Assembly (NCBI GenBank): GCA_046259705.1
Contig: JBJYXA010000173.1
Coordinates: 4,998-64,612 of the forward strand
Direction: 5' to 3'
From: Caldilineaceae bacterium
GTDB taxonomy: Bacteria > Chloroflexota > Anaerolineae > Caldilineales > Caldilineaceae
DNA length: 59,615 bases
Part shown: piece after piece, positions 4,697 to 49,961 of the stretch
Layout: each line of letters begins with the position of its first letter
How positions within the stretch are numbered: position 1 is the first letter of the stretch
Program-made: the position numbers and the translations under genes
The notes under the pieces: generated by a model
What the model saw: only the letters and a program-made list of their open reading frames with translations
What the model was told of the DNA's origin: nothing
Databases searched by the model: none

Positions 4697-6502
4697 ATGA
4701 TGAGCAACCCCGCGAAATCAACAACATATGTCACGGAACCAACGGGCTGGGATCTGAGCGACCTGCTTCCGGAACCGTCCGAAGCGGTGATTGACGAACG
4801 GCTGGCAGCGCTGGAAACAGAGGTCGCCGCATTGGAGCAACAGCGAGATCTGCTTGACCCGGAAATGGATCCAGGACTGCTGATACAGATTGTGGAGCAG
4901 TATGAATGTCTGGTCGAGCAGATCTACGTTCTTGGCTCCTACGGCAGCCTGTGGTTTGCGGCTGAAACACAGTCTGCCGCCGCGCTCAACTACCGCAACC
5001 GCATGATGCAGACGCTGACGCAGGCGCAGAACCGCACGCTATTCTTCGATCTGTGGTGGAAATCACTTGACGATAACGAGGCCGCCGCGCTGTTGCCCAG
5101 CGCTGACGCGTATTCGGACTATCGCCATTTTCTCGAGGACATGCGGCGTACCAAGCCGTATACGAAGGAAGAGAAGATCGAGCAGGTCATCAACATCAAG
5201 GATGCGAATGGCATCAGCGCGGTCATCACACTATACGACATGCTGACGAGCCGTCTCGAGTTCACGCTGGACGTAGGCGGGGAGAAGCGTTCATTGACAC
5301 GTGACGCGCTCATGTCCTATGTCCACTCTCCCGATCCCGGCCTGCGCGCCGCGGCCTATCAGGAGCTTTATCGTGTCTACATGGGCGAGGCAAATATCCT
5401 GGCACAGATGTACGCAAACCGCGTACGCGACTGGTATATGGAACAGGTTGAATTACGCGGCTATGAAACTCCGATTTCCGTTCGTAACGTCAGCAACGAC
5501 ATCCCTGATGAGGCGGTCGACACGCTGCTGAACGTGTGTAGGAATAACGTCGGCGTCTTCCAGCGTTACTTCCGGCTCAAGGCAGGTTGGCTGGGAGTGG
5601 ACAAGCTGCGACGGTATGACATCTACGCGCCCCTCACCGAGTCGGACCGCGAGATAGCGTATGGCGATGCCATCGAGATGGTCTTGGAGACATTTGAAGA
5701 GTTCTCTCCCCAGATCGCGGAACAGGCGGAGCGCGTATTCGCCCGTGATCATATCGATTCGGAAGTGCGCAAAGGAAAACGAGGCGGCGCCTTCTGTGCG
5801 ACCGTATTGCCAAGCCAGACACCTTGGGTACTCATGAACTTCACAGGGAAGGTGCGCGATGTCGCGACGATGGCACACGAATTGGGGCACGCTATCCACT
5901 CCATGATGGCTGCGCATCACAGCGTGCTGACGCAGCATTCCGCCCTGCCTTTGGCCGAAACCGCATCCGTCTTTGCCGAAATGTTACTGACGGACCGCTT
6001 GCTGGAGGAAGAGGAAGACCCGCTTGTCAAACGCGAAATCCTTGCCACGGCGGTCGACGATATGTACGCGACAGTACTTCGCCAAGCCTATTTCGTAGCA
6101 TTCGAACGCACGGCGCATGAAGCTATTCTCGCCAATAAGTCCCAGGACGAACTGAACGCGCTGTACGCCCAGAATCTGGCAGAGCAGTTCGGCGACAGCG
6201 TGGAAATAGGTGACGAGTTCCAATATGAATGGGTGAGCATACCTCATATTTTCCACACACCCTTCTATTGTTACGCCTATAGTTTTGGACAACTTCTCGT
6301 ATTGGCCCTCTATCGACGCTTCCAACAGGAGGGTGACGCGTTCAAGCCGGCGTATCTGCGCTTGCTCGCACACGGCGGCTCCGCGCGTCCGGTCGAGATC
6401 TTGGAGGAGGCGGGCATCGATATCTCCGATCCCGCATTTTGGCAGGGCGGATTCGACGTCATCAGTGACATGATCAGCCAGCTCGAGGATATCGAATTTT
6501 AG
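4697..6502 (+). CDS. pepF: Oligoendopeptidase F family (M3B) metallopeptidase
   Basis: 601 aa with the zinc motif MAHELGHAIH and M3B-like overall layout. It starts 15 nt after the acnA stop. Confidence 0.85.
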   Translation: MMSNPAKSTTYVTEPTGWDLSDLLPEPSEAVIDERLAALETEVAALEQQRDLLDPEMDPGLLIQIVEQYECLVEQIYVLGSYGSLWFAAETQSAAALNYRNRMMQTLTQAQNRTLFFDLWWKSLDDNEAAALLPSADAYSDYRHFLEDMRRTKPYTKEEKIEQVINIKDANGISAVITLYDMLTSRLEFTLDVGGEKRSLTRDALMSYVHSPDPGLRAAAYQELYRVYMGEANILAQMYANRVRDWYMEQVELRGYETPISVRNVSNDIPDEAVDTLLNVCRNNVGVFQRYFRLKAGWLGVDKLRRYDIYAPLTESDREIAYGDAIEMVLETFEEFSPQIAEQAERVFARDHIDSEVRKGKRGGAFCATVLPSQTPWVLMNFTGKVRDVATMAHELGHAIHSMMAAHHSVLTQHSALPLAETASVFAEMLLTDRLLEEEEDPLVKREILATAVDDMYATVLRQAYFVAFERTAHEAILANKSQDELNALYAQNLAEQFGDSVEIGDEFQYEWVSIPHIFHTPFYCYAYSFGQLLVLALYRRFQQEGDAFKPAYLRLLAHGGSARPVEILEEAGIDISDPAFWQGGFDVISDMISQLEDIEF

Positions 6503-6562: not shown

Positions 6563-6609
6563 AAACGGCGCTCAAGCCCGTAAGAACGCAGCAATGAGCG
6601 CCGTTTTTT
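6563..6609 (+). terminator. Rho-independent terminator candidate after pepF
   Basis: AAACGGCGCTCA (6563-6574) pairs with TGAGCGCCGTTT (6594-6605) and is followed by a T-run to 6609. The 19-nt loop is long for a terminator. Confidence 0.55.
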
Positions 6610-6766
6610 GATCCTCTACGGGTTCCGCTCTAGTCGTCGTTAACCTAATACGCAGAGCGCTTGCTTTGGTCAACGCAACGGGTAGCATCTCGCCATCTCC
6701 ACTCTCAGTAGGGCTAGCTTTCCAAGCCATTTGGCCGGGCGCTCGTAGCCAATTGGTAGATAAAGT

Positions 6767-6810
6767 ACAATATTGTCTATATATTGCACATATAATGCAC
6801 AATATGTGCA
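6767..6810 (+). promoter_or_regulatory. AT-rich promoter/operator region with two perfect palindromes upstream of the selenoprotein cluster
   Basis: There is a 10-bp palindrome ACAATATTGT (6767-6776). A 9-bp inverted repeat TGCACATAT (6785-6793) / ATATGTGCA (6802-6810) overlaps a TATAAT hexamer (6791-6796). The region lies about 80-120 nt upstream of the GTG at 6888. No good -35 at canonical spacing was seen. Confidence 0.4.
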
Positions 6811-6887
6811 GGGTGCGTGTACAGATCGGTGGACAGTATTTGGTCTAGCAAAGCTTGGAGTTTGGACAACCCAACAGGGAGCGAAAT

Positions 6888-7049
6888 GTGAAATATGTTG
6901 TCTTTGCTCCAGTCTTCGTTGCACTTCTGTTGGCTGCCTGTGCACCAGCATCTGCACCCGTAGCAACGCCGGAAGCTGCACAATCTAGCGGCGGCGAAAT
7001 GGCTACCAATAGCGCGCAACTGAATAGGTACCATCGGAGCGGCTTCTAA
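6888..7049 (+). CDS. Small lipoprotein (53 aa), function unknown
   Basis: The GTG start is preceded by AGGGAG. The signal peptide plus lipobox reads MKYVVFAPVFVALLLAAC. The mature part is short and Ala/Pro/Ser-rich. Confidence 0.5.
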   Translation: MKYVVFAPVFVALLLAACAPASAPVATPEAAQSSGGEMATNSAQLNRYHRSGF

Positions 7050-7088
7050 TATCTGTCCCTCGACATTTCTTCGGGAGTAAGAGATAGC

Positions 7089-7640
7089 ATGAATTTGATA
7101 GACAAAAACGTACTGAACAGAGCGGTAGAAGGTGTGAACGTGCAGCCCGGGAGATTTGCCGATCAGCTTCTGGAGGGGAGGACGCTCCTGATATTTCTGC
7201 GCCACTTTGGTTGACCTTTTTGCCACGAGACTGTGAAAGAACTGCGTAAGGTATTCACCACTAATGCCTATGACCTGAAGATTCTCTTTGTGTATCAGGG
7301 AACTGTGGATCAGGGCAACGTCTTCTTTCAGCAGTTGTGGCCGGAGGCACGTGCTGTCTCCGATCCGTCGAAGTATCTCTATCAGGCGTTTGGCTTGGAG
7401 AGAGCGAGCCTGCGAGAGATAATTGGCCCGGAGGTCGCGGCCTGTGGGATCCGCGCTATGAAAAACGGGTCGTTTGGTGGGCGACCGGTCGGTGATACTC
7501 GTATGATGCCCGGCGCCTTTCTGGTGGACGGCGAGGAAATTCTGTGGCGTCACGATTATCGTCACATAGCAGACCATCCGGATTTTGAACAAGTGGTTTC
7601 AAACACAGCCAAGAATGGGGCTGGGAGGAACTCTCCATGA
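7089..7640 (+). CDS. Peroxiredoxin-like 2 (PRXL2/PAMM, AhpC-TSA_2 type) selenoprotein with in-frame TGA (Sec) at 7212..7214
   Basis: ATG 7089 is in the same frame as ORF 7233..7640, with no other stop between them. Read-through gives ...RTLLIFLRHFG-U-PFCHETVKELRKV, where TGA falls on the first Cys of the thioredoxin-fold CxxC. The downstream sequence (YLYQAFGLER...GGRPVGDTRMMPGAFLVDGEEILWRH) resembles PRXL2A-type proteins. Without read-through the gene loses its redox motif. Confidence 0.7.
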
Positions 7641-7819
7641 ATTCTCGAACTCAAATTGTCAAAGGCTCCATACTTCTGGCTGCGGCAATTTCATTTGCAT
7701 TGTCAGTATGGCTCTGGTTCACTGGTTCAAGGGAGCAAGGGCTCTTCGTCGCAATCTGGGTCCCTTCCATCCTAAGCCTCGGTGCTCTTGTCCTGGCCGG
7801 GAGCGGACATAATGAGTGA
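7637..7819 (+). CDS. Small membrane protein (60 aa, 2 predicted TM helices)
   Basis: Its ATG overlaps the upstream stop (ATGA). There are two hydrophobic segments: ILLAAAISFALSVWLWF and LFVAIWVPSILSLGALVLAG. Confidence 0.5.
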   Translation: MNSRTQIVKGSILLAAAISFALSVWLWFTGSREQGLFVAIWVPSILSLGALVLAGSGHNE

Positions 7820-7964
7820 CACGGTCCTTTTTGTCTGGGGGACGGTTGCGTTCCTGGTCGCCGTTGGTCCTCTTGCAATTGCAGCATTCCTGGATTATCG
7901 GGACCGCGCCAACAAGCGTGCCCTCGATCGCGCGGCTGGACTTGGCGAAGATGTGAGTAACTGA
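7812..7964 (+). CDS. Small membrane protein (50 aa, 1 predicted TM helix)
   Basis: ATG 7812 overlaps the upstream stop (ATGAGTGA) and GGGAG lies 10 nt upstream. The TM segment is VLFVWGTVAFLVAVGPLAIAAFL. An alternative GTG start exists at 7782. Confidence 0.45.
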   Translation: MSDTVLFVWGTVAFLVAVGPLAIAAFLDYRDRANKRALDRAAGLGEDVSN

Positions 7965-7988
7965 CATTTCGGATGAAGGATTCGGTGG

Positions 7989-8330
7989 ATGGATAGACGC
8001 GTGTGCAGCGCTATCTTCGGAGCCGGAATCGACGGCCTGATGTCGACAGCTATCTTGGCGCGTGCCGAAGTCAAGCCATTATTCTGGGATCACAAGTATG
8101 TTCTGCAGGCGCGCGCGTACATTCTGTCATCAGGCATGTCGGTTTGAGTCGGATGCAGAGCCTTTCAGGCAACAAGCTTTGCGGTGGATGGAGTCGGCTG
8201 GCCACACAGCGTAGTCGGCCGAACCGAATTCTGTGGCGCCGCTGCGCTAGCAAAACATTCGCTCGCACATGACTGGCGGCGCTCAACTGGAACGCAACCG
8301 GCGACGGATCCGGCCCGTGATGATGTGTGA
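7989..8330 (+). CDS. AhpD/carboxymuconolactone-decarboxylase-like candidate selenoprotein with in-frame TGA (Sec) at 8145..8147
   Basis: This gene is absent from the ORF track because both halves are 60 aa or shorter. ATG 7989 has AAGGA 9 nt upstream. Translation is MDRRVCSAIFGAGIDGLMSTAILARAEVKPLFWDHKYVLQARAYILSSGMSV-U-VGCRAFQATSFAVDGVGWP...DDV*. The segment around U aligns by eye to the CMD core (L-x-a-v-s-a-x-g-C-x-x-C-x3-H-x7-G), with U at the first Cys, Gly conserved at +12 and His replaced by Gln. Confidence 0.45.
8154..8183 (+). promoter_or_regulatory. Possible SECIS-like hairpin downstream of TGA 8145
   Basis: TGCAGAGC (8154-8161) pairs with GCTTTGCG (8176-8183), giving 8 bp including 2 G.U pairs. 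The 14-nt loop contains AGG. The hairpin begins 7 nt after the TGA and is weak by eye. Confidence 0.25.
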
Positions 8331-8439
8331 CAACCTTGCGCGATTCCGCGTTGCGTGTGTAGGTCCCAAGCGTGTATACTGACCACGTCAACGGTTACAG
8401 ACCGCACGGGTCCCACCCACGCAACGGATCGCAGAGATC

Positions 8440-9240
8440 ATGGCACCATCGAATGCACCGGCTGCCGATACCGGCGCTTGCGCAACGAATGACGAGGCCG
8501 CGCCGGAAGCACGTGGGACGGCCGCGCGGGCGGAGCCAGTGGTGCTGCTTTTCTTGTGCAGGCGCAGCACGGCCCGCCAGGTTGACGCCACTTGGCCAGA
8601 GGCCTGGAGAGTCCAAGAGCCAACATCCCCTATTGCGCTGGAAATTCATTTCGATTCACAGCAACAGATTCATCTCTTGGTGGTTACCAGCCAACGGGCG
8701 GCCCTACGCCACCTGAGCGTTCATCCATCACAGGCCATATTGGTTGAACTTGATAGCCGGCCCCACAGCCGAGAACACTTCTGCCACGTTCTGCGCCGTC
8801 GTATTCCGGCTATGCCGATTTTCGCAGTAGGCAAGAAGCCGCCAACGGGCCGCTTTTCTTTCGACGGCTACATACCTCTGCCCTTAACCCGGGAACTTGC
8901 TGAGTCTGCCGCCGAGAGTCTGCAAGAAGAGACACCATCGCAGATACTAGAGTGCGGCCCGTTCGAGTTGAACCTGGCCACGCGAACCGTGCATACACCG
9001 GACGGCTCTCGTCGACTAACGCCAAAACTGTGTGCACTACTCCAGCTACTTATGAACAACTCCAATGTTGTAGTAACTCGCCCGGAGATTATGTCCACGA
9101 TCTGGGAAACGTCGTACCTTGACGACACGCGGACGCTGGACGTACACGTGCGCTGGCTACGTGAGTCAATCGAGCCGGATCCCTATAACCCGAAGCACTT
9201 GGTCACCGTTAGGGGCAAAGGATATACGTTTCGATGTTGA
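8440..9240 (+). CDS. OmpR/PhoB-type winged-helix transcriptional regulator with degenerate receiver-like N-terminus
   Basis: The C-terminal domain is clear: ...FELNLATRTVHTPDGSRRLTPKLCALLQLLMNN...TRTLDVHVRWLRESIEPDP...LVTVRGKGYTF. The N-terminal part lacks the acidic DD pocket and the conserved Lys. The start codon is uncertain. Confidence 0.7.
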   Translation: MAPSNAPAADTGACATNDEAAPEARGTAARAEPVVLLFLCRRSTARQVDATWPEAWRVQEPTSPIALEIHFDSQQQIHLLVVTSQRAALRHLSVHPSQAILVELDSRPHSREHFCHVLRRRIPAMPIFAVGKKPPTGRFSFDGYIPLPLTRELAESAAESLQEETPSQILECGPFELNLATRTVHTPDGSRRLTPKLCALLQLLMNNSNVVVTRPEIMSTIWETSYLDDTRTLDVHVRWLRESIEPDPYNPKHLVTVRGKGYTFRC

Positions 9241-9288
9241 TAGGGCTCGGTGCAGGTAGAGAGCGGTTATGCGGTGCCAGCAGTCGGC

Positions 9289-11847
9289 CTAGCCGACTGT
9301 ACGTCTCGCTTCTACGACGTTGGGGAGACGGTCAATTTTTGTGAGTATGCGCGTCAACTGCGTAGCGTCGCGGATTCCCAACGTGGCGTTAATGAGAGCG
9401 AGGTTGTCCTGTTGCCCAGTCAAGGCTTCCACGGTGATCATGTTGATATGCTCATCCGCCACAAGTGCGGCCACGTCACGCATTAGGCCCGACCGATCGT
9501 ACGCGCTGACTTGGATACGCACCGGGTACGAGGCTTCCGGCTGGTCAGCCCATTGAACGTCGACGAGACGATTATCTTCGCCCTGACGCACAATATTGGC
9601 GATGTTTGGACAATTGGTGCGATGGATAGTGACGCCGCTGCCACGCGTTACATAGCCGACGATTGCGTCTCCCGGTACCGGATTGCAGCACTGGCCGAGT
9701 CGCGTCAGTAATCCCTCAACGCCTTGAACGCGGAACCCATCGGTGGCGCCGCGGCCAGCCTCGTCACCGGTTCCCTCTAGGCGATTCTCCCAAGCAGCAA
9801 ATGGGTCCTCTTGCTGGGACTTCTCCCGCTCTTTGCGTTCCTTTTCGAGCACGCGTTGAGCGAGTTGCTGGGAGTTGACATCTCCATAGCCAATGGCCGC
9901 CAAGAAGTCGTCCACTTTTTCATAGCCGAACAACCGCGCCAGTGTCTCGTGGCTGTCGGAAATGGCGAGCCGCTTGATTTCCTTTTCCAACATCTGTCTG
10001 CCACGCTGTATGTTTTCGTCCCTATCTTGCCTGCGCAGCCAACTCCTGATCTTGCTGCGGGCTCTCTGTGTGGCAATGTATTCCAGATTCGGATTCAGCC
10101 AATCACGGCTCGGACCGCCTCGTTTGGCCGTGATCACGGTGACCTGGTCCCCGTTCTGCAGCTTATAGTCCAGCGGCACAAGCTTGCCCTTGATGTTCGC
10201 GCCGCGGCAACGGTGGCCAAGTTCCGTGTGAATGGCGTAGGCGAAATCGATTGGCGTCGAACCCGCGGGCAAGTCGATCACGTCACCTTGAGGAGTGAAG
10301 ACATATACGCGGTCGTGGAACACGTCCGACTGCATGCCTTTGACGAATTCGGCGGCATCCGATACGTCCTGGCGCCACTCCATCAGTTGCCGCAGCCACG
10401 CGATCTTTTCCTGGAACTGGCGCTCGTGGCGTTTTTCCTCTTTATACTGCCAATGTGCGGCGATGCCTCTCTCCGCCACCTCGTGCATCTCGTGCGTGCG
10501 GATCTGGATTTCCATTGGCCGACCGCTACGCCGCGAGAGCACCGCAGTGTGAAGACTCCGGTACATGTTGTCCTTGGGGTTGGCGATATAGTCGTCGAAC
10601 TCACCAGGAATGGGTCGCCAGATGCTGTGGACGATTCCCAGCGCCGCGTAGCATTGGGCCTCGGTGTCGACGATTATACGGAAGCCGTGAATGTCGTAGA
10701 TCTGGTCGAATTCGATGTCTTTTCTATGCATCTTGCGATAGATGCTGTAGATGTGCTTTGGGCGACCCGAGATCTCGGCTTCGATGCCCGCCTTCGCAAG
10801 CTCTTGTCCCAGTTCGATTTTGGTCTTCGCCACCCACTTTTCGCGATCATCTCGTTTTTGTTCGACGGCACGCGCCAGCTCACGGTAGGTATTCGGCTCG
10901 AGATAGCGGAAACTTAGGTCCTCCAACTCCCATTTGATCTGCCATATACCCAGGCGATTCGCCAGTGGTGCAAAGATATCCAGGGTCTCCCGCGCGATCC
11001 GTTTCTGTTTGTGTTTCTTCTGGCTGCCCAACGTACGCATATTGTGCAGCCTGTCGGCCAGCTTGATGATAACGACGCGAACATCGTCAACCATTGCCAG
11101 AAACATCTTGCGCAGCGACTCGGCTTTGGCGTCCGCGATACCTTCTTTAGCGTTTCCAATCTCGTTGATCTTCCTCAACTTCGTCACGCCATCGACGAGA
11201 TTGGCCACAGATTCACCGAAACGGTCGCGAATAAAGGTGATGTCAAAATCCGTATCCTCAACCACATCGTGCAGCAGACCTGCCGCCAGCGTGTCCGGAT
11301 CCATCCGTAGTTCGGCGAGGATGGTGGCAACTGCAATAGGGTGCGTCACATAGGGCTCACCACTATTCCGAAACTGGTCGCGATGGGCATAGCTCGCAAC
11401 AGCGTATGCAGTGAGCAGGAATTCGCGGTCGGGAGCGGCGTACGAATCAGGGAGTATGCGGAGTAACCGATCTAGCGCATGCAACTCCTCGTCGGACGGC
11501 TGAATTTGGACATCCAATCCGCCAGCTGTGATGGGGATAGGCGGTAGGTCCAGCAGCAAACCATAAACGGAATCGAGTGTGGTGCCTGATGGCTGGGGTA
11601 TGTTGAGAGCCAGATGACCATGACCTGCTGAATTCATAGTCACGCCATGATGACTAGTCCCGTTTGTCCCCGCGCGGCCACTGTCGGCAGGAACCTTTGC
11701 AATTGATTGAGAGCCCGGTGTGTTTTCTCGCGTTGTGTCTGAGGACTCCTCGCGCGCTACTTCTTGCTCAACGTCCGCGGTGCTCTTCTGGACCGCACTC
11801 CCCATAGGTAGACACTCCCCGCGGGCTCCGGTAATTCGGTCGCCCAC
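9289..11847 (-). CDS. relA: Bifunctional (p)ppGpp synthetase/hydrolase, RelA/SpoT family
   Basis: It contains an HD hydrolase motif (HDVVEDT), a synthetase region (YRSLHTAV) and TGS and ACT-like C-terminal domains. The low-complexity N-terminal extension makes the true start uncertain, with internal Met codons at 11805 and 11637. Confidence 0.9.
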   Translation of the reverse strand: MGDRITGARGECLPMGSAVQKSTADVEQEVAREESSDTTRENTPGSQSIAKVPADSGRAGTNGTSHHGVTMNSAGHGHLALNIPQPSGTTLDSVYGLLLDLPPIPITAGGLDVQIQPSDEELHALDRLLRILPDSYAAPDREFLLTAYAVASYAHRDQFRNSGEPYVTHPIAVATILAELRMDPDTLAAGLLHDVVEDTDFDITFIRDRFGESVANLVDGVTKLRKINEIGNAKEGIADAKAESLRKMFLAMVDDVRVVIIKLADRLHNMRTLGSQKKHKQKRIARETLDIFAPLANRLGIWQIKWELEDLSFRYLEPNTYRELARAVEQKRDDREKWVAKTKIELGQELAKAGIEAEISGRPKHIYSIYRKMHRKDIEFDQIYDIHGFRIIVDTEAQCYAALGIVHSIWRPIPGEFDDYIANPKDNMYRSLHTAVLSRRSGRPMEIQIRTHEMHEVAERGIAAHWQYKEEKRHERQFQEKIAWLRQLMEWRQDVSDAAEFVKGMQSDVFHDRVYVFTPQGDVIDLPAGSTPIDFAYAIHTELGHRCRGANIKGKLVPLDYKLQNGDQVTVITAKRGGPSRDWLNPNLEYIATQRARSKIRSWLRRQDRDENIQRGRQMLEKEIKRLAISDSHETLARLFGYEKVDDFLAAIGYGDVNSQQLAQRVLEKERKEREKSQQEDPFAAWENRLEGTGDEAGRGATDGFRVQGVEGLLTRLGQCCNPVPGDAIVGYVTRGSGVTIHRTNCPNIANIVRQGEDNRLVDVQWADQPEASYPVRIQVSAYDRSGLMRDVAALVADEHINMITVEALTGQQDNLALINATLGIRDATQLTRILTKIDRLPNVVEARRTVG

Positions 11848-24948: not shown

Positions 24949-27207
24949 CTAGACCGGCTTTACCACATCGCACAGCAAAGTTTTGTAAATGGGGAAGCCG
25001 GAAATCGGATCGAAATGCGCAGCCTCCGTCAGCTCATTGACGTTGGCTCTACGCCACGCTTCGTTGCCGAGCGGACCACCGCCGCCCATATTCGCCTCGA
25101 CTACGCCCGGTACAATCCTATCGCTCACGCGCGCAAGGTAGGGTACCCGGCCGCGGGGTGTCACCACGAGAACTTCATCACCGTCCGCGATGCCCCGCTG
25201 TTCGGCATCGCGAGGGTGCAAGAGTACCAGTGGCGCAGGCGCCTTGCGAGACAGCCCCGGTATGTTGTGAAGCTGCGAACGAAAATCTGTTTGCGTGCGC
25301 GCACCGGAGTTGAATACGAGCGGATACGTCTGTGCCAGCTCCGGCGCATTCAACGGACCGATGGCAGGTTCCGTGTACACGGGCAGCGCATCATAACCAT
25401 AGCGCGCAAGCAGGCTGGAGGCAATCTCAAGCTTGCCTGTTGGCGTCTCAAAACCGGGGCGGCCGTCTTTGCGCAATAGCCCCCGCTCCCACTTGCGGTA
25501 GACCATTTCGGCGCTGGGCAAAGTGATGCCGTCCTGGCTTGCCCGCAACATTTCAACGTCGATATCGCTTTCCTCAAGGACCAATTCGAGCATGTCGTCT
25601 ACATTCTGCGGATAGCGGTCACCGTAGCCTAGCCGTTCCGCGATCGCTGCGTAGATCTGCGCGTCGGGTCTCGCCTCACCCACCGGCTCTATGATGCGGG
25701 GACGCCACTGGATGAAGTTGCCGCGCATCACGTAGGACTCGATCTCGAACAGTGTAGCGGACGGCAGCACGATGTCGGCATACATGGCATCGGCCGTTAT
25801 GAAATGATCTACAACGACCAGAAAATCCAGCGCCTCGAAACAGCGCCGCCAAAGCGCCGGCTGCGGATACGAGGTAAGCATGGATGCGCCGCCGATGACC
25901 ATGGCGCGAACAAGATATGGCTCTCCCTCCAGGATGGCCGCGGGCAATGCCATCGAATGCGCCTCGCGCCGAAAGTGATAGTAGAGGGGAAACTTGTCCT
26001 TACCGACGGGATCGACGCCGAGCGGAGGCGCGATCTTCGTGCCGTGTATCGGGAATTCACTATTCGGCATCTTGAAATTTACACCGCCCGGCACATCGAG
26101 CTTGCCTGCGAGCGCCCATAGAATCAGCGCTGCACGTATGTTCTGAACGCCGCTGTCGGTATATTCCAGCCCAGTGTACATTACCTGCGCCGCGCCTCGA
26201 GCGCCGGCAACCCTCCGCGCCAGATTGCGCACGCTATCTGCTGGCACCCAGGTGATGCGCTCGACTTCTTCTGGCGTGAACTGCTGCACGTACTCACGCA
26301 ACTCGTCGAACCCAACCGTCCATTGCTCAACGAAATCCCGGTCGTATAACTGCTCTTCGATGAGCACGCGTATCATGCCCAACGCCAGCGCACCATCTGT
26401 TCCAGGCCGGATCCCTATCCATTGCGCGTCCGTGGCCTTGGCCGTCTCGGTCAGTCGATGGTCGATACACACCACCTCTGCGCCGCGCCGTTTTGCGCGC
26501 AAAATCCTGCGCAGCATCGTCGGCGGTGAGTCCGTAGCCGGGTTCGCACCCCACACGACGATCAGGTCCGCATTCTCGACGTCGTCGAACATGTCTATCC
26601 AGTAGGCGCCAAATGTCGTCTGCGGCGCCAAAAACGCCCGCGCCACATAGCAGATTGCCCCTACGCCCGTCGTGTTTGGCGAACCCAAGGGAAAGAATAA
26701 GCTGGATGCTGACGATTCTCGAATGTCTGCCGGGCCGAAGAGGTCCTGCAGCGAACGCTCGAAGCTGCCGCGCCCCGTGTACATACAGACGGCCTCGGGA
26801 CCGTATTCCGCGGCCACCTGGCGCACACGCGCCGCGATGGTGTCCAGCGCCTCATCCCAAGAGATCGCTTCGAACGCCTCCGTTCCTTTGGGACCGACCC
26901 GCCTCAGGGGGGTCAGCACCCGGTCAGGTGAATAGACTATTTCCGGCGCGTGCATCCCGCGCGGGCAACAGATTCCTCGTGGGTGCCCCGCGCGCGGGGC
27001 AACGGACGTCAACACTCCATCCGTGACAGTCGCGACAATGCTACAGCCCGAGTCGCAGACGCCACATAAGCCAGGTACCGTCTCTATTCTCGAACCGTCA
27101 CCCTTGGCTTTTCCGTTTCCCGCAATGGCAGCGCTTCGCTGGGATGTGGCTTCCGGGCTCACCATCTCTGTCCTTTTTCCAGATTTCTTGGGATACATAA
27201 GGATCAC
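24949..27207 (-). CDS. Molybdopterin (bis-MGD) oxidoreductase, cytoplasmic, with N-terminal 4Fe-4S motif
   Basis: The motif C-x2-C-x3-C...C is present (LCGVCDSGCS...GICCPRG). MopB-like core segments are seen (VVWGANPA, GIRPGTDGAL). No Tat signal is present. The GTG start overlaps the upstream stop (GTGA), and alternative ATG starts lie 9 and 42 nt downstream. Confidence 0.85.
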   Translation of the reverse strand: MILMYPKKSGKRTEMVSPEATSQRSAAIAGNGKAKGDGSRIETVPGLCGVCDSGCSIVATVTDGVLTSVAPRAGHPRGICCPRGMHAPEIVYSPDRVLTPLRRVGPKGTEAFEAISWDEALDTIAARVRQVAAEYGPEAVCMYTGRGSFERSLQDLFGPADIRESSASSLFFPLGSPNTTGVGAICYVARAFLAPQTTFGAYWIDMFDDVENADLIVVWGANPATDSPPTMLRRILRAKRRGAEVVCIDHRLTETAKATDAQWIGIRPGTDGALALGMIRVLIEEQLYDRDFVEQWTVGFDELREYVQQFTPEEVERITWVPADSVRNLARRVAGARGAAQVMYTGLEYTDSGVQNIRAALILWALAGKLDVPGGVNFKMPNSEFPIHGTKIAPPLGVDPVGKDKFPLYYHFRREAHSMALPAAILEGEPYLVRAMVIGGASMLTSYPQPALWRRCFEALDFLVVVDHFITADAMYADIVLPSATLFEIESYVMRGNFIQWRPRIIEPVGEARPDAQIYAAIAERLGYGDRYPQNVDDMLELVLEESDIDVEMLRASQDGITLPSAEMVYRKWERGLLRKDGRPGFETPTGKLEIASSLLARYGYDALPVYTEPAIGPLNAPELAQTYPLVFNSGARTQTDFRSQLHNIPGLSRKAPAPLVLLHPRDAEQRGIADGDEVLVVTPRGRVPYLARVSDRIVPGVVEANMGGGGPLGNEAWRRANVNELTEAAHFDPISGFPIYKTLLCDVVKPV

Positions 27208-28802
27208 GCACGCTGCGCTTCGCGTTGAATATGCGCCAGTTCATCCCGAACTGCATCCGTCAACGGCGCGGGTTGATGTGATTCCATGATAGATATCGTC
27301 TTGTCGCGCAGGCGCTCTTCCAGCGTTAGCGCTCCGTTGGACTCCCAGTGCGTATAGCGGCGGCGTTCGAACAGCGTCGGATACCAGTCGTCCCGGTAGT
27401 GCCGCAGCGTGTGCTCCGTGGCGATGAAGTCTCCGCCAGGGCCGACTTCGTGAATCACTTCCAATGCAAGCATCTCATCGCTCAAATCAACTCCGGCCAT
27501 GAAACGACTGTGCATGTCGACCATCTCGGCGGTAAAGACTATCAGTTCGGGTGACGTGGTCAATCCCGCCTCGAGATATCCTACGTCGTGTACGAGGTGG
27601 ATGCCCATCATCAAGGCATCGCGCACCTGATACGCCGCATCCGCTGCTGCCTGGCCGTCCATGACATGCGAATCGCTGCAACTGGAGTAGCCCCAGGAGG
27701 GCAATCCATAGTATCTTGCCATGTCCGCTACCAGGGCTCGAGCCAGTTGGAATTCCGGAGCGCCGTAGACGCTAATCGTCGTCCGCAGATCCAGATGATG
27801 TAGGCCGGTACCGAAGACGAAGGGCGCTCCTTGGCTCTTCAATTGATGCATCACAAGGCTGCTCAAGACTTCCGCGTTGCCGAGTGCAAGCCCGCCTGCG
27901 AGCGTCACCGGGGCGGTGCCGCCCATCATGGGCGCCGGCGAATGAACGACGGGTAGACGCTCTTGCGCCATGTACAACAACTTTTCCGTAGCCGTGCGTG
28001 TATGGACCAGCGGCGTCGTCGGTTCAGAATAAAGTAATATCGTCGGATTCAGACGGAGGGCATCCATGCCGCCGGCGGCTGCAGCCGCCATCGCCGCAAT
28101 GGCCTCACAGTCTGCGCGGTCGTTCGCTACGAATACGGCCGGTTTTTCGGTGTGCTCCAGCATCAATCCATATTGTAGTTGATACTGGCTGCCGGGCGTG
28201 ATTCCTTCCGGGATTCCCATGGACATCACAAAACCGATCTGCGGCAGCGCATCACACAACCGTACACATGCGGCGATATCCTCGACCGTGAAGTCCCGAT
28301 GTCCTTCTTTTGGATCCAGGTAGTGTGGACAATCGGATCCAGGTCCGAAACTGACGTTGGCTCCGCTGAGTTCGACCGCTACTTCGTCGCTGCCGCGCTT
28401 GCATAGCGCTAACCGTGACGGCGCCTGCCGCAGCGCCCATTCCGTCAGCGCAGGCGGAAGTTTCACCAAATCACCGTCGCTGACGTGTGCGCCGGCCTCC
28501 TGCAACAGGTGCAGCGCCTCGGGTTCCTGGACGCGCACGCCGGTACGCCTCAATATCTCCAACGACGCGTGGTGAAGCCGTTCACAACCGGCGTCGTCGA
28601 GCAGGCTGAATCGCGGGATGTATTGTCGGGAATCGTTCAATTCGCGGCTCGAATTCGTAGTGGTGAGGCAGACGAACAGCCAGTGCCGAAAGAGACTATA
28701 CCAGAAGGAACCGAGTCCAAACAGACGAGCAGTTGCTCTCTGCCTCCACGAGGAAACATATATGCCCGCAACCATTATACATCCGACTCGGGGTAGAGCC
28801 AC
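27204..28802 (-). CDS. MttB-superfamily (trimethylamine methyltransferase-like) protein, non-pyrrolysine type
   Basis: The N-terminal signature matches the family (FSLLDDAGCERLHHASLEILRRTGVRV) and the length and C-terminus are typical. There is no in-frame TAG. The first 55 codons or so are hydrophobic and atypical, so the true start may be the TTG at 28640. Confidence 0.8.
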   Translation of the reverse strand: MALPRVGCIMVAGIYVSSWRQRATARLFGLGSFWYSLFRHWLFVCLTTTNSSRELNDSRQYIPRFSLLDDAGCERLHHASLEILRRTGVRVQEPEALHLLQEAGAHVSDGDLVKLPPALTEWALRQAPSRLALCKRGSDEVAVELSGANVSFGPGSDCPHYLDPKEGHRDFTVEDIAACVRLCDALPQIGFVMSMGIPEGITPGSQYQLQYGLMLEHTEKPAVFVANDRADCEAIAAMAAAAAGGMDALRLNPTILLYSEPTTPLVHTRTATEKLLYMAQERLPVVHSPAPMMGGTAPVTLAGGLALGNAEVLSSLVMHQLKSQGAPFVFGTGLHHLDLRTTISVYGAPEFQLARALVADMARYYGLPSWGYSSCSDSHVMDGQAAADAAYQVRDALMMGIHLVHDVGYLEAGLTTSPELIVFTAEMVDMHSRFMAGVDLSDEMLALEVIHEVGPGGDFIATEHTLRHYRDDWYPTLFERRRYTHWESNGALTLEERLRDKTISIMESHQPAPLTDAVRDELAHIQREAQRA

Positions 28803-46487: not shown

Positions 46488-47600
46488 CTAGGAGACTTCG
46501 ATGCCTTCACCCGCAACGACGTCGCCAATCTCCCAGCATTGCAGACGTCGCTTGAAGGCTGTCTGGCGGAAGCGGTCCAGTTCGTGTTCTGGGACGGCGA
46601 GCAACAATCCGCCACTTGTTTCCGCCTCCCACATCAACGTTCGAATAGGCATGGGCACATCCGGCGCAAAATGCACGTGCTCGCCGAACTCGCTCGGGTT
46701 GAGCGTTGAGCCTCGAGTCAGGTAGCCGGCCTCTATGTACTTGCGCACTCCGGAAAGCGCCGGTACTTCCGCTGATCGAATCCTCAGTGCGGCGCCGGTT
46801 TCGGTACTACTGGCTATGGCCATTTCAGCAGCGTGACCAAGTAGTCCGAACCCGGTTATGTCCGTAGCGCCGCGCACATTCGCCTCTTGAGCCACCTGGC
46901 TCGCGGTACGATTGAGATTCAGCATGGAAATGACTGCCGCGTCCAGATCATGCACGTCTATATCCGGTTTGCCTTCCATGCGCCTTTCTGCGCGGTGTTC
47001 CTGTGTCTCGCCCCTGCCTGCAACCTTGGCTGCCGTGGTGATAATGCCGGTGCCAAGCGGTTTGGTCAGGAACAGTCTGTCGCCTGGACGGGCGCCGCCT
47101 TTGCGCATTATGCGCGACGGGTCCACCCAGCCTGTTACGCTTAGGCCGTAGAAAGGTTCCGGACTGACGACTGTGTGCCCGCCGGTAATGGCCGCCTTGG
47201 CCTCGCGTACTTTCGTTGCGCCGCCTGCGAAAATCTGCACGATGTAGTCGTTGGGAAATTCATTGGGGAAGCCGGCGACATTCAGACATGCGACGACATC
47301 ACCACCCATGGCATAGACGTCGCTCATCGCGTTCACTGCGGCAATAGCGCCGAAGGTCCAAGGATCGTCTACCACCGGAGTAAAGAAGTCCACCGTCTTG
47401 ATCAGCGCCCGCGACTCGTCGATGCGGATAACGGCTGCATCATCCGGTTCGCCCAGGCCAATCAGGACTTCGGGGTATTCAGTTGCCGGAAAGAATCCGG
47501 CTAGTTGTCGCACGACCTGCGACAATGTCCCTGGCGGGAGCTTAGACGCTCAACCCGCACAAGCGACAGTGGCGGTCAGTGCCAACTCGTCTTCAGACAA
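46488..47600 (-). CDS. selD: Selenide, water dikinase (selenophosphate synthetase), Sec-containing form with TGA at 47550..47552
   Basis: ORF-track ORF 46488..47525 has a SelD body (DDAAVIRI, AIAAVNAMSDVYAMGG, PurM-like fold) but lacks the catalytic N-terminus. Reading upstream in frame through TGA gives M(TTG 47600)SEDELALTATVACAG-U-ASKLPPGTLSQVV. This places U at residue 17 and K at residue 20, the positions of Cys17 and Lys20 in E. coli SelD. GAGGA lies 7 nt upstream of the TTG, and an in-frame TAG at 47619-47621 bounds the ORF. Confidence 0.8.
47505..47525 (-). promoter_or_regulatory. SECIS-like hairpin inside selD
   Basis: The minus-strand RNA is UUGUCGCA-GGUCG-UGCGACAA, an 8-bp perfect stem with a 5-nt loop. 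The stem starts 24 nt 3' of the UGA, putting the loop 32 nt 3' of it. GCAGGUC(G)UGC resembles the apical part of the E. coli fdhF SECIS (GCAGGUCUGC). Confidence 0.55.
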
Positions 47601-48050
47601 TTTACTTTCCTCAATGAACTAGATGGCTGATTCGGGGCGTAGACGTAAGGCACACTTTCCTAAGCACTGCTGCTACGGGTCGCCCTCTAGCCCCCTCGAT
47701 GGAACTCTTTACATCAACGGGATTCTAGAACGCAACCGAGAATACGCCAAGATTTGTGGTCCGATGCATTGCCTCGACGAGAATCCTGCAGGCGTAAGAA
47801 TACGCCCATGAAGCTATGGCTAAGGCGTGTGGTCCGCGAAGCACACGCAAGCGCAATGGCTTTGCCGGCAAGGCGCGATTCCGAGTATATTATGTTGCAT
47901 CTCTGATGGCGAGTTCGCTTCACTAAGGGCAAGTGATGCCCTACATAGATCCCGTTGGCAACAGGTCAGATCTGCACGTATCCAGATCCGTGCGCATCGA
48001 GTGGTGCCTTTATCCATGCCGCAAGAGTACACGAATTGGGAGACTTACGC

Positions 48051-49961
48051 ATGACGAGAAAGCTTTCGCTCCTCGCGCCCCAACCGCAGGAACTACAGGT
48101 ATTCGAAGGTGTGTATTACGTGGCCGATGCCGGCAGCGTTCGCATCCTCAGCCATACATCGTCGCAGCTATTCACTGCGCAGTGGCTGAAAGACGCGTTG
48201 AGGAGTTTGGATGTCGACGCCCAAATCACGGCAAGTCCGGGAAACGAACTTGGCGACATAGTGCTCGTGATCGACAGCGCACTGTGTCCCAAGCCGCAGA
48301 GCTATCGACTCACGGTGGATCCGTCACGCGTGTTGATTACGGGCGCTGACGGGGCCGGTTTGTTCTATGGCGTCTGCACGCTGTGCCAATTGCTCGATCT
48401 CTACTGCGGGCCGGATGACGACGGCGCGATACCGGTTCTACAGATTCAGGACTGGCCCGACTTTCCCTATCGTGGCGTGATGCTGGACGTCAGCCGCGAT
48501 CGCGTTCCGACCATGGAGACGCTCTACGAGCTGGTCGACATGCTTGCAGGCCTCAAAGTAAATCAACTCCAGCTCTACACGGAGCATACTTTTGCCTACG
48601 CCGGACACGAGATCGTGTGGGATGGTCTGAGCCCGATTACACCACAAGACGTGCTCGAACTCGACGCATACTGTCTCGAAAGACACATGGAGCTGGTTCC
48701 TAATCAGAATAGCTTTGGCCACATGCATCGCTGGCTAAAATACGACAAGTACCGCTCGCTAGCGGAGGTGCCCGACGGCATTCTTCATCCGTTTACGTCC
48801 AAGAAGGAACCGTATAGCCTGTGTCCGACAGATCCACGGAGTATCGGGTTGCTGGCCGAGATGTACGCGCAGCTTCTGCCCAATTTCTCAAGTAAGCAGT
48901 TTAACGTTGGCCTGGACGAAACTTATGATTTAGGCATGGGACGCTCGAAGGAGATCTGCGAAGATAAGGGTGCGGGCGCTGTATATATCGATTTCCTCAA
49001 GAAGATCCACGAATTATCTATGCGACATGGCCGCACCATGCAATTTTGGAGCGACATTATCGTACGAGATGAGCCAGACCTGTTGGTCGAACTGCCTCGT
49101 GATGTACTAGCTTTGGAATGGGGCTACGAGGCGGACTATCCGTTTGACCAGCATACGCGCTTGATCGCCGAATCTGGCCGCAGTTTCTACGTATGTCCAG
49201 GGACCAGCAGCTGGAATACCCTCGCCGGTCGCACCGACAATGCGATAGGCAATCTTCGCAATGCCGCGGTCAATGGTTTCGAGAACGGCGCTATCGGTTT
49301 CTTAAACACGGACTGGGGTGACAACGGTCACATGCAGCCGCCGCCAGTGAGCTACCTCGGTTATCTCGTGGGCGCTGCTATGTCCTGGAACGTCGATACT
49401 GCAAAGACCGACCAGGAACCTAATTGGGCTGCTATGTTGGACCAGCACGTATTCCGCGATAGAGCTGGCGTCATGGGGCAGTTGGCGTACGACCTAGGTC
49501 TGGCGTATGCACATGCGGGCGCCAAAATCCACAATAGTTCACCGCTCTTCTGGCTTCTGATCCTTCCCGACGCATTGCCCGCCGGGCGATTCGCGGACGG
49601 CACGACGGAGGAGACATTGCGCAGCGCAGAAGCTTACCTTGACGCCTTGGCGGCCAAAGTGGTCAGTAGCGACATGCAACGTCCTGACGCAGAACTGGTC
49701 GAGTCGGAGTATTTGTGGGTCATCGACATGCTGAAGTGGGCCGCACGCCTGGGTATTGCCCGACTGGCCGTGGGCGTGGATAAGCCTGTCGAGGCCGTAG
49801 ACGGCGGGACGCGACGAATCCTCGCCGCCGAACTGGAGACACTCATCGAGCGATTTCGGACCCTGTGGTTGCAACGAAGTCGCCCCGGCGGCCTCGATGA
49901 TTCGGCCGGCCGGCTGGAGAAGATGCTGGCGCGCCTGCGTGGTGCGGGCACAGTCCAGTAG
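48051..49961 (+). CDS. GH20-family beta-N-acetylhexosaminidase-like protein
   Basis: It contains DWPDFPYRGVMLDVSRD and a candidate catalytic D-E pair in FNVGLDETYD. The start is set at ATG 48051 (MTRKLS), with GGGAGA upstream, rather than the ORF-track start at 47955. Confidence 0.75.
   Translation: MTRKLSLLAPQPQELQVFEGVYYVADAGSVRILSHTSSQLFTAQWLKDALRSLDVDAQITASPGNELGDIVLVIDSALCPKPQSYRLTVDPSRVLITGADGAGLFYGVCTLCQLLDLYCGPDDDGAIPVLQIQDWPDFPYRGVMLDVSRDRVPTMETLYELVDMLAGLKVNQLQLYTEHTFAYAGHEIVWDGLSPITPQDVLELDAYCLERHMELVPNQNSFGHMHRWLKYDKYRSLAEVPDGILHPFTSKKEPYSLCPTDPRSIGLLAEMYAQLLPNFSSKQFNVGLDETYDLGMGRSKEICEDKGAGAVYIDFLKKIHELSMRHGRTMQFWSDIIVRDEPDLLVELPRDVLALEWGYEADYPFDQHTRLIAESGRSFYVCPGTSSWNTLAGRTDNAIGNLRNAAVNGFENGAIGFLNTDWGDNGHMQPPPVSYLGYLVGAAMSWNVDTAKTDQEPNWAAMLDQHVFRDRAGVMGQLAYDLGLAYAHAGAKIHNSSPLFWLLILPDALPAGRFADGTTEETLRSAEAYLDALAAKVVSSDMQRPDAELVESEYLWVIDMLKWAARLGIARLAVGVDKPVEAVDGGTRRILAAELETLIERFRTLWLQRSRPGGLDDSAGRLEKMLARLRGAGTVQ

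Follow-up and report, generated by a model that had tools for sequence, protein, structure and literature searches.

The closest described relatives of the gene considered here, which lies at 7089-7640 in a 59.6-kb stretch of a Caldilineaceae genome (contig JBJYXA010000173.1; this whole stretch is termed the window), are the SelL-related redox proteins (NF040769; PF13911; the PRXL2 or 'Prx-like 2' group, including fish selenoprotein L). The window protein shares with this family the motif FLRHFG-(U/C)-x-F-C-R/H-E, the alternation of selenocysteine (Sec, U) and Cys at the first position of the redox dyad and the single-domain architecture of ~180 residues, and differs from it in nothing essential. 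Animal SelL has UxxU, whereas the window protein has UxxC. The human prostamide/prostaglandin F synthase PRXL2B (PDB 9usa/9us9) resembles the model of a Cys-containing homolog of the window protein in its thioredoxin fold, with CxxC at a helix N-terminus, but it is a eukaryotic Cys enzyme of only ~18% identity. Mycobacterial AhpC/AhpD is similar only in the general idea of a thiol or selenol peroxidase with a dedicated reductant. Known AhpD-like selenoproteins (COG2128/PF02627/TIGR01926) carry CxxU (PMC2398784 Table 2; PMC13188914), whereas the window has UxxC, a peroxiredoxin-like protein of the PRXL2 type and no AhpD/CMD domain. An earlier reading of the DNA alone (the original prediction) had presented a peroxiredoxin-like and AhpD-like pair of selenoproteins as an undescribed system; such genes have already been reported as neighbors, in Global Ocean Sampling (GOS) reads (PMC2398784) and in a 2026 review (PMC13188914). 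A further family of relevance is that of the CrtD/CrtI carotenoid desaturases (TIGR02733/TIGR02734), of which the window keeps an N-terminal GxGxxG stretch and a (F)HQGYRFDAGA-like stretch within a ~300-nt frameshifted stub that cannot encode an enzyme.

We propose that the cluster at this locus is very likely a short operon in which one selenoprotein gene and two genes for small membrane proteins, mem1 and mem2, are intact and are flanked by two deletion stubs. The original prediction had described five intact genes, two of them encoding UxxC selenoproteins; its positions, ribosome-binding sites (RBS) and overlaps were accurate, and two of the five are stubs. Related loci are labeled L001-L090 and related proteins P0001 onwards, with the three closest loci, L001 and L002 (ENA contigs) and L003 (a Chloroflexia metagenome-assembled genome, MAG), serving as syntenic references. 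The features of the cluster are as follows.

6888-7049, + strand: remnant of a fasciclin (FAS1) lipoprotein gene with signal peptide, lipobox (LLAAC) and Pro/Ala linker, assigned by alignment to L001-L003.
7089-7640, + strand: SelL-related (PRXL2 / AhpC-TSA_2 type) thioredoxin-fold redox selenoprotein of 183 aa with U42-P-F-C45 (NF040769, PF13911).
7212-7214, + strand: UGA read as selenocysteine, the putative attacking residue of UxxC, from the Sec/Cys alternation at the aligned codon.
7221-7223, + strand: TGC codon of the putative resolving Cys of the UxxC dyad.
7637-7819, + strand: mem1, a conserved 60-aa two-helix membrane protein.
7812-7964, + strand: mem2, a conserved 50-aa single-helix membrane protein with homologs in the same position behind mem1.
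7989-8330, + strand: decayed 5' fragment (pseudogene) of a CrtD/CrtI-family FAD-dependent desaturase gene, from synteny, collinear fragments and nucleotide alignment.

The open reading frame (ORF) at 7089-7640 has a single in-frame TGA, at 7212-7214, in the context LLIFLRHFG-U-PFC-HETVKELR. In profile searches, for which U was replaced by C in Sec ORFs, it matches NCBIfam NF040769 'SelL-related redox protein' with 144.7 bits (cutoff 120, E 2.1e-42) over residues 8-171 of 183, i.e., across the TGA, and it also passes Pfam AhpC-TSA_2 (PF13911, 3.7e-09). An identity as AhpC, a typical 2-Cys peroxiredoxin, was rejected, as the AhpC-TSA profile (PF00578) gave 20.2 bits, under its cutoff of 26, and the motif G-U-P-F-C is of the PRXL2 type and not PxxxT/SxxC. 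A signal peptide is absent, which points to a cytoplasmic protein. Among 5.8 billion proteins there are 180 homologs, of which those of full length have Cys at the aligned position 42. The closest homologs (57-67% identity) are fragments of 125-136 aa that start just past the redox motif, and gene callers therefore halted at the Sec codon. The database copy of the window gene itself (P0001) is such a fragment of 135 aa, starting at GTG 7233, as had been anticipated for standard gene calling. A different annotation is seen for P0002 in locus L090 (JGI contig Ga0055446_10022944), where the Sec codon is translated as Trp (FLRHFGWPFCRE); the gene call for this contig apparently used a genetic code in which TGA=Trp, so that the selenoprotein passes unnoticed as a full-length-looking protein.

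A sequence search of the PDB gave nothing meaningful. For the Cys homolog P0003, which is 54% identical to the window protein, an AlphaFold model (pLDDT 94) has its best PDB match in human PRXL2B (9usa; E 3e-08, TM 0.69/0.76), followed by PrxQ/BCP. Its CxxC lies at the start of helix 51-66, so that in this model, which is of the homolog and not of the window protein, the dyad is at a helix N-terminus in a thioredoxin/peroxiredoxin-like fold.

The codon aligned with TGA 7212 was compared across 161 SelL-related loci, consisting of 82 genome loci (mostly Chloroflexota MAGs) and 79 metagenome loci; a genome scan with a single protein found no relatives, its patterns being too specific, and the counts come from an alignment-based scan. 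The codon is TGA in 94 loci and TGC or TGT in the other 67. The genome loci have TGA in 49, TGC in 22 and TGT in 11 cases, the metagenome loci have TGA in 45, and counted as distinct sequence contexts the numbers are 82 for TGA vs. 61 for Cys. The flanks FLRHFG and xFCRE are conserved on either side of the alternating codon and C45 is nearly invariant. The UGA at 7212 is thus more than a chance occurrence, because the NF040769 match spans it and because TGA and Cys codons alternate at this position across the loci. Hence, as judged from sequence, the SelL-related protein is a genuine selenoprotein of an already catalogued and curated family.

The nature of the flanking ORFs is revealed by the syntenic references, all three of which have the order aconitase, pepF, fasciclin lipoprotein, SelL-related protein (with TGA), mem1, mem2, FAD oxidoreductase, Trans_reg_C regulator and relA. 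The SelL-related, mem1 and mem2 genes are kept together as expected for a conserved neighborhood, but the two ORFs on either side of them in the window correspond to intact fasciclin and CrtD-like genes in L001-L003. Several genes in L001 and L003 are themselves broken by frameshifts, namely pepF (337+137 aa), the fasciclin gene (247+96 aa) and, in L001, the CrtD-like gene; these splits are probably long-read assembly errors, and gene calls at these loci are not reliable at face value.

On the upstream side, the lipobox ORF comprises 64 or 53 codons, from starts at 6855 or 6888, and ends at 7049. Its first 30 residues, VKYVVFAPVFVALLLAACAPASAPVATPEA, match MKVLFSLMVFVALLVAACAPAAAPVAAPEA of the ~330-aa two-FAS1-domain fasciclin proteins found at the same position in L001-L003, and these neighbor proteins match Pfam Fasciclin. 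Bases 6889-6976 share 71% identity with the first 88 nt of the L001-L003 fasciclin genes (z about 8-10), and the 3' part of the ORF has no match to these genes. A FAS1 domain was not found by Pfam in 6888-7049, nor is there an intact fasciclin homolog in the 59.6-kb window. We therefore read 6888-7049, which had been taken as a small lipoprotein gene in its own right, as a truncated fasciclin gene from which both FAS1 domains have been deleted and of which only the first ~88 nt are recognizable.

On the downstream side, the ATG at 7989 is 24 nt past the mem2 stop and has AAGGA 10 nt upstream, and the frame runs to TGA 8145-8147, followed by GTC GGA TGC. At the same position, L002 and L003 have an intact gene for a CrtD-like FAD oxidoreductase of 518 and 524 aa (TIGR02733 6.5e-82, below the equivalog cutoff), and the L001 copy, which over residues 1-259 has 98% identity to the L003 protein, is broken up, probably through frameshifts introduced in assembly. 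The L003 gene starts 37 nt past mem2 (ATG at 4914), whereas the entire gap between mem2 and the regulator gene in the window is only 475 nt. The start of the window ORF, MDRRVCSAIFGAGIDGLMSTAILARAEV, matches the dinucleotide-binding N-terminus of the L003 protein, MTEADRTIIIGAGIGGLTVAAALARAGV. There is a collinear peptide match at 8013-8072 (IFGAGIDGLMSTAILARAEV ~ IIGAGIGGLTVAAALARAGV), a second one 41 nt on in another frame at 8113-8157 (ARTFCHQACRFESDA ~ AGTFFHQGYRFDAGA of L003) and a third, weak one, and they correspond to desaturase residues ~9-28, 43-57 and possibly ~141-165, in different frames. The N-terminal peptide match is also present with the more diverged L002. At the nucleotide level, window positions 8012-8314 align with the first ~345 nt of the L003 and L001 genes with z = 6.0 and 7.2 vs. 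shuffles, and the indels have lengths not divisible by three. The desaturase 5' end of L003/L001 is the top-scoring 400-nt tile, at 51, and none of 1010 control tiles taken from unrelated loci scores above 45. It appears that ~1.3 kb of the desaturase gene were lost and that the remaining ~300-nt 5' end decayed, because identity to L003 resumes at 8370-8476 (79% with L003 6610-6716; there is also a 112-nt match to L001). Only collinear fragments and no full-length domain of the desaturase family are found in 7989-8330, which is hence a remnant and not a member, and the assignment, made by alignment, is convincing only in combination with position and collinearity. No intact CrtD-like homolog was found elsewhere in the 59.6-kb window, and the other ORFs in the 7965-8440 region, at 8071-8391(-), 8165-8416(-), 8003-8272(+) and 8372-8716(+), have no family.

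The ancestral frame also accounts for the second in-frame TGA. Around 8145 it reads CGG TTT GAG (R F E), compared with CGC TTC GAC in L003, and TTT GAG encodes the F E of the GYRFDAGA motif; TGA 8145-8147 is therefore an ordinary out-of-frame triplet, T-TGA-G. By codon-usage log-odds there is no frame with coding bias past this TGA, while a weak coding signal persists in the first 52 codons, and the RNA 3' of it folds worse than shuffles (z +1.11). The deletion is not a one-off assembly error, because the same state is carried by L089, an independent metagenome contig from the same population as the window that was not counted as a distinct locus. L089 is 99.7% identical to window 7256-10273 and spans the CrtD-like stub, not the fasciclin stub. 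The CrtD-like stub state is thus real in the population. Only eight single-nucleotide polymorphisms (SNPs) separate the two contigs, with none in 7965-8440, and this is too few for a selection test.

The alternative that fares best, though we consider it improbable, is that both stubs are functional mini-genes under selection that encode a 53-aa lipopeptide and a 52-aa Rossmann-motif peptide. In both stubs the start codon does survive along with its promoter or RBS surroundings, the lipobox is undamaged, and the stubs are identical in L089 where it covers them, but the eight SNPs between the two samples are too few for a test of selection, the short forms are without any homolog, their C-terminal tails are similar to nothing, and a 20-residue GxGxxG fragment cannot bind FAD. 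We accordingly retain the two-stub reading of the flanks.

Other features of the window, including those that bear on decoding of the UGA, are as follows.

46488-47552, - strand: SelD (selenophosphate synthetase), itself Sec-containing, from TIGR00476 and an upstream in-frame UGA.
7218-7241, + strand: candidate SECIS-like (selenocysteine insertion sequence) hairpin from fold prediction, with two 4-bp helices, a 2x2 internal loop and the apical loop AGAC.
6785-6810, no strand assigned: AT-rich promoter-like region with a perfect inverted repeat, TGCACATAT-N8-ATATGTGCA (9-nt arms, 100% complementary).
8370-8439, + strand: conserved non-coding block, the putative promoter/5' leader of the regulator gene, from nucleotide alignment.
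8440-9240, + strand: OmpR-family DNA-binding regulator (Trans_reg_C; Pfam PF00486 2.7e-22, residues 192-264 only).
6777-7592, antisense to the cluster: ORF of 271 aa from the ORF list.

The SelD ORF at 46488-47525(-) matches TIGR00476 (5e-90), and upstream of it an in-frame TGA at 47552-47550 gives VACAG-U-ASK (VACAG*ASKLPPG). A SelD with its own UGA indicates that UGA is decoded as Sec in this organism, and the Sec-type SelD named in the original prediction is confirmed. For the SelL-related gene, the wobble-position differences seen in L001, L002, L003 and L090 leave the pairs of the candidate hairpin at 7218-7241 intact, and double compensatory changes were not found among these closest sequences.

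Several results count against the arrangement that we propose. No SECIS is demonstrable for UGA 7212 by single-sequence folding, RNAalifold or Rfam: the fold downstream of the TGA is no more stable than shuffles (z -0.56), RNAalifold gave no consensus structure with 50 Sec forms or 33 Cys forms at four lengths each, the Rfam scan returned nothing relevant at the gathering cutoff or at E<=10, and the minimum free energy is the same in Sec and Cys forms. Pairing frequencies do differ between TGA and Cys forms, and this was traced to base composition at codon 9 past the UGA and to no specific helix. Neither SelA nor SelB is among the 20 large window ORFs scanned, and there are no tRNA genes in the window and hence no tRNA-Sec. 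For the CrtD-like remnant, the homology consists of short, degraded matches (tblastn over the whole window, E = 0.15), the nucleotide match is not reproduced with L002, Pfam NAD_binding_8 does not match, and the codon-usage test is low-powered, with real genes of the locus also scoring low. Finally, we know of no bacterial member of the SelL-related family whose substrate and physiological role have been established.

That TGA 7212 might be a true stop, leaving either a pseudogene or only the 135-aa C-terminal product from GTG 7233, would be in keeping with the lack of a proven SECIS, with selA, selB and selC not being seen in the window and with a gene-caller annotation of exactly that product (P0001). 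However, the N-terminal 41 codons are conserved as protein and are needed for the fold, since they provide a strand and the CxxC helix, the 94 independent loci have TGA exactly at the catalytic Cys position, NF040769 is curated as a Sec/Cys family and the SelD in the window is itself Sec-dependent, so that we regard a true stop as very improbable. Least credible of all is that 7989-8330 encodes an AhpD-like selenoprotein (U-V-G-C) peculiar to this lineage and responsible for recycling the Prx-like one in a five-gene redox module, since against an ATG with a well-placed AAGGA, a frame open on both sides of TGA 8145, the weak N-terminal coding signal and the presence of the sequence in a second metagenome (L089) stand an RBS, start and first ~25 codons that are those of the relatives' CrtD-like gene, a TGA in a segment of different ancestral frame with neither coding signal nor a stable fold past it, the CxxU order of known AhpD-like selenoproteins (PMC2398784), no CMD/AhpD match in Pfam or NCBIfam at E<=1 and no AhpD-like gene beside the SelL-related gene in any of the 161 related loci.

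The AhpD/CMD identity (PF02627, COG2128) of 7989-8330 was accordingly rejected: the read-through product, whole or in halves, had no Pfam or NCBIfam match at E<=1 and no homologs at E<=10 in a word-indexed search of the 5.8 billion proteins, and its UxxC is opposite in order to CxxU. The original prediction had placed a TGA on the N-terminal Cys of the dyad in two enzymes. This stands for 7212, across which the Cys forms align in a protein that matches PF13911, as foreseen for a PRXL2-type selenoprotein with U-P-F-C, and it fails for 8145, across which nothing aligns at E<=10 and where CMD is unmatched and the triplet is out of the ancestral frame. With neither the AhpC nor the AhpD family represented at the locus, the proposed AhpC/AhpD-like pair of selenoproteins falls away. 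The value of the present analysis is mostly corrective, as comparison with syntenic relatives removes the second of the two selenoproteins that the operon seemed to encode. In an orphan ORF, a TGA in frame with xxC behind it is by itself weak evidence, and genes truncated by deletion can pass for members of a compact cluster where their start codon and RBS survive. What the window adds is one Sec-form member of a curated and functionally uncharacterized family.

The two small membrane-protein genes, by comparison, were correctly recognized from their overlapping starts and are both conserved. The mem1 start overlaps the stop of the SelL-related gene (ATGA, 7637-7640) and the mem2 start overlaps the mem1 stop by 8 nt (ATGAGTGA, 7812-7819), which suggests translational coupling. 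There are 307 mem1 homologs, 55-80 aa long, and an alignment of 14 sequences has 19 invariant columns and the core SILLAAAISFxLSVxLWFTGSxEQGIFVGIWVPSILSFGA, while mem2, with the core LFxWGxxAFLLAVGPLAIAAxLD, has few relatives, of 32-54 aa; neither matches a Pfam or NCBIfam family. A mem2-like gene is directly behind mem1 wherever mem1 was looked up, usually with an overlapping stop and start. The contexts of the pair at L083-L088 include a MerR/B12-binding regulator with TspO and an NmrA/DUF2867 protein, a plastocyanin-like protein with cytochrome b/c, and a two-component system with a PIN protein, and a SelL-related gene is not nearby in any of these unrelated contexts. Conversely, in the set of SelL-related loci, mem1 and mem2 are next to the SelL-related gene only in L001-L003, L089, L090 and the window. 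The two are thus real conserved genes and not specific partners of the selenoprotein, and their arrangement behind it is a clade-specific juxtaposition in which functional coupling is possible.

By analogy with its structural relatives, we infer a catalytic cycle for the SelL-related protein in which Sec42, part of the U42-P-F-C45 motif where the first long helix begins, would be the nucleophile that attacks the oxidized substrate, Cys45 would resolve the intermediate to a selenenylsulfide and a thioredoxin-type thiol reductant would recycle the enzyme. Most likely the enzyme would reduce an organic or lipid (endo)peroxide or a disulfide, because PRXL2B, a CxxC endoperoxide reductase, and PrxQ/BCP are closest structurally. 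The operon would be transcribed from the retained fasciclin promoter region, through the stub and the selenoprotein gene, into the coupled mem1 and mem2, the upstream stub having arisen from the fasciclin gene and the downstream stub from the CrtD-like gene, both by deletion. The second 'UxxC' is an accident of decayed DNA read in a non-ancestral frame. The enzyme and mem1/mem2 may also be tied functionally, and an extension of this idea, which we consider unlikely, is that, within a Chloroflexia clade, the SelL-related gene was captured before a widespread mem1/mem2 cassette and that the three products form a membrane-tethered, Se-dependent reductase for oxidized membrane lipids or carotenoids. 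Hints in this direction are the ancestral carotenoid desaturase neighbor and the cassette contexts with the MerR/B12 regulator, TspO and electron-transfer proteins. The B12-binding MerR-type architecture beside the cassette is presumably that of the light-responsive CarH/LitR regulators.

The region that would drive the operon lies between pepF and the fasciclin stub. A promoter-like site is predicted at 6757-6785, and the inverted repeat overlaps a TATAAT-like box upstream of the fasciclin stub. The palindromes in 6757-6823 overlap one another and are built on TGCACA half-sites, with TGTACA at 6818-6823, and the motif GCACATATAATG is common to the window and to the regions upstream of the fasciclin gene in L001 and L003. 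The region 6757-6823 is probably an operator-promoter of the operon, and the genes of the cluster would be co-transcribed. The terminator proposed for pepF is visible by eye as a hairpin at 6568-6610 (GGCGCTCA...TGAGCGCC) followed by a T-run, but the terminator scan gave no call at the pepF 3' end, where the loop is long. The 271-aa antisense ORF, noted before and indeed present, had no family match in profile scans. At the other end of the cluster, the regulator is the same downstream neighbor as in L001-L003; its winged-helix C-terminus is present, and in Pfam residues 1-190 are without assignment and a receiver domain is not recognizable.

The neighbors of SelL-related genes in general are different from those in the window. 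Directly downstream in 28 of the 82 genome loci is a gene for an alpha/beta hydrolase of ~255 aa, often with a stop/start overlap, whereas mem1/mem2 take this position in the window, L001, L002, L003 and L090. The hydrolase is therefore a far more widespread candidate partner of the SelL-related gene than anything in the window, and both this partnership and the mem1/mem2 pair may aid future functional work. The hydrolase-like proteins have the N-terminal motif IA(L/V)HGNGGGxFRF (loci including L005, L015, L020, L032-L035, L037, L039, and L040), and the pairing is seen in Chloroflexota, Acidobacteriota (Chloracidobacterium), Chlorobi-like Thermochlorobacter and Deinococcota and is absent from the window. 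In Caldilineae-type loci a tRNA gene is located ~90-190 nt past the SelL-related stop (L006, L016, L018, L025, L029, L031, L049, L052, L056, L057, and L082); it was suspected to be tRNA-Sec and was identified as tRNA-Asp(GTC).

Two further regions of the window may be mentioned. A 668-aa ORF at 47955-49961, divergent from SelD, has no NCBIfam match at E<=1e-10. At 24949-28802(-), a molybdopterin oxidoreductase (Fdh-alpha/PhsA-like, 752 aa) has a 4-nt overlap with a homolog of the MttB methyltransferase superfamily (TIGR02369 1.8e-107, below cutoff), and the latter, judging from its uninterrupted frame, would be a non-pyrrolysine member.

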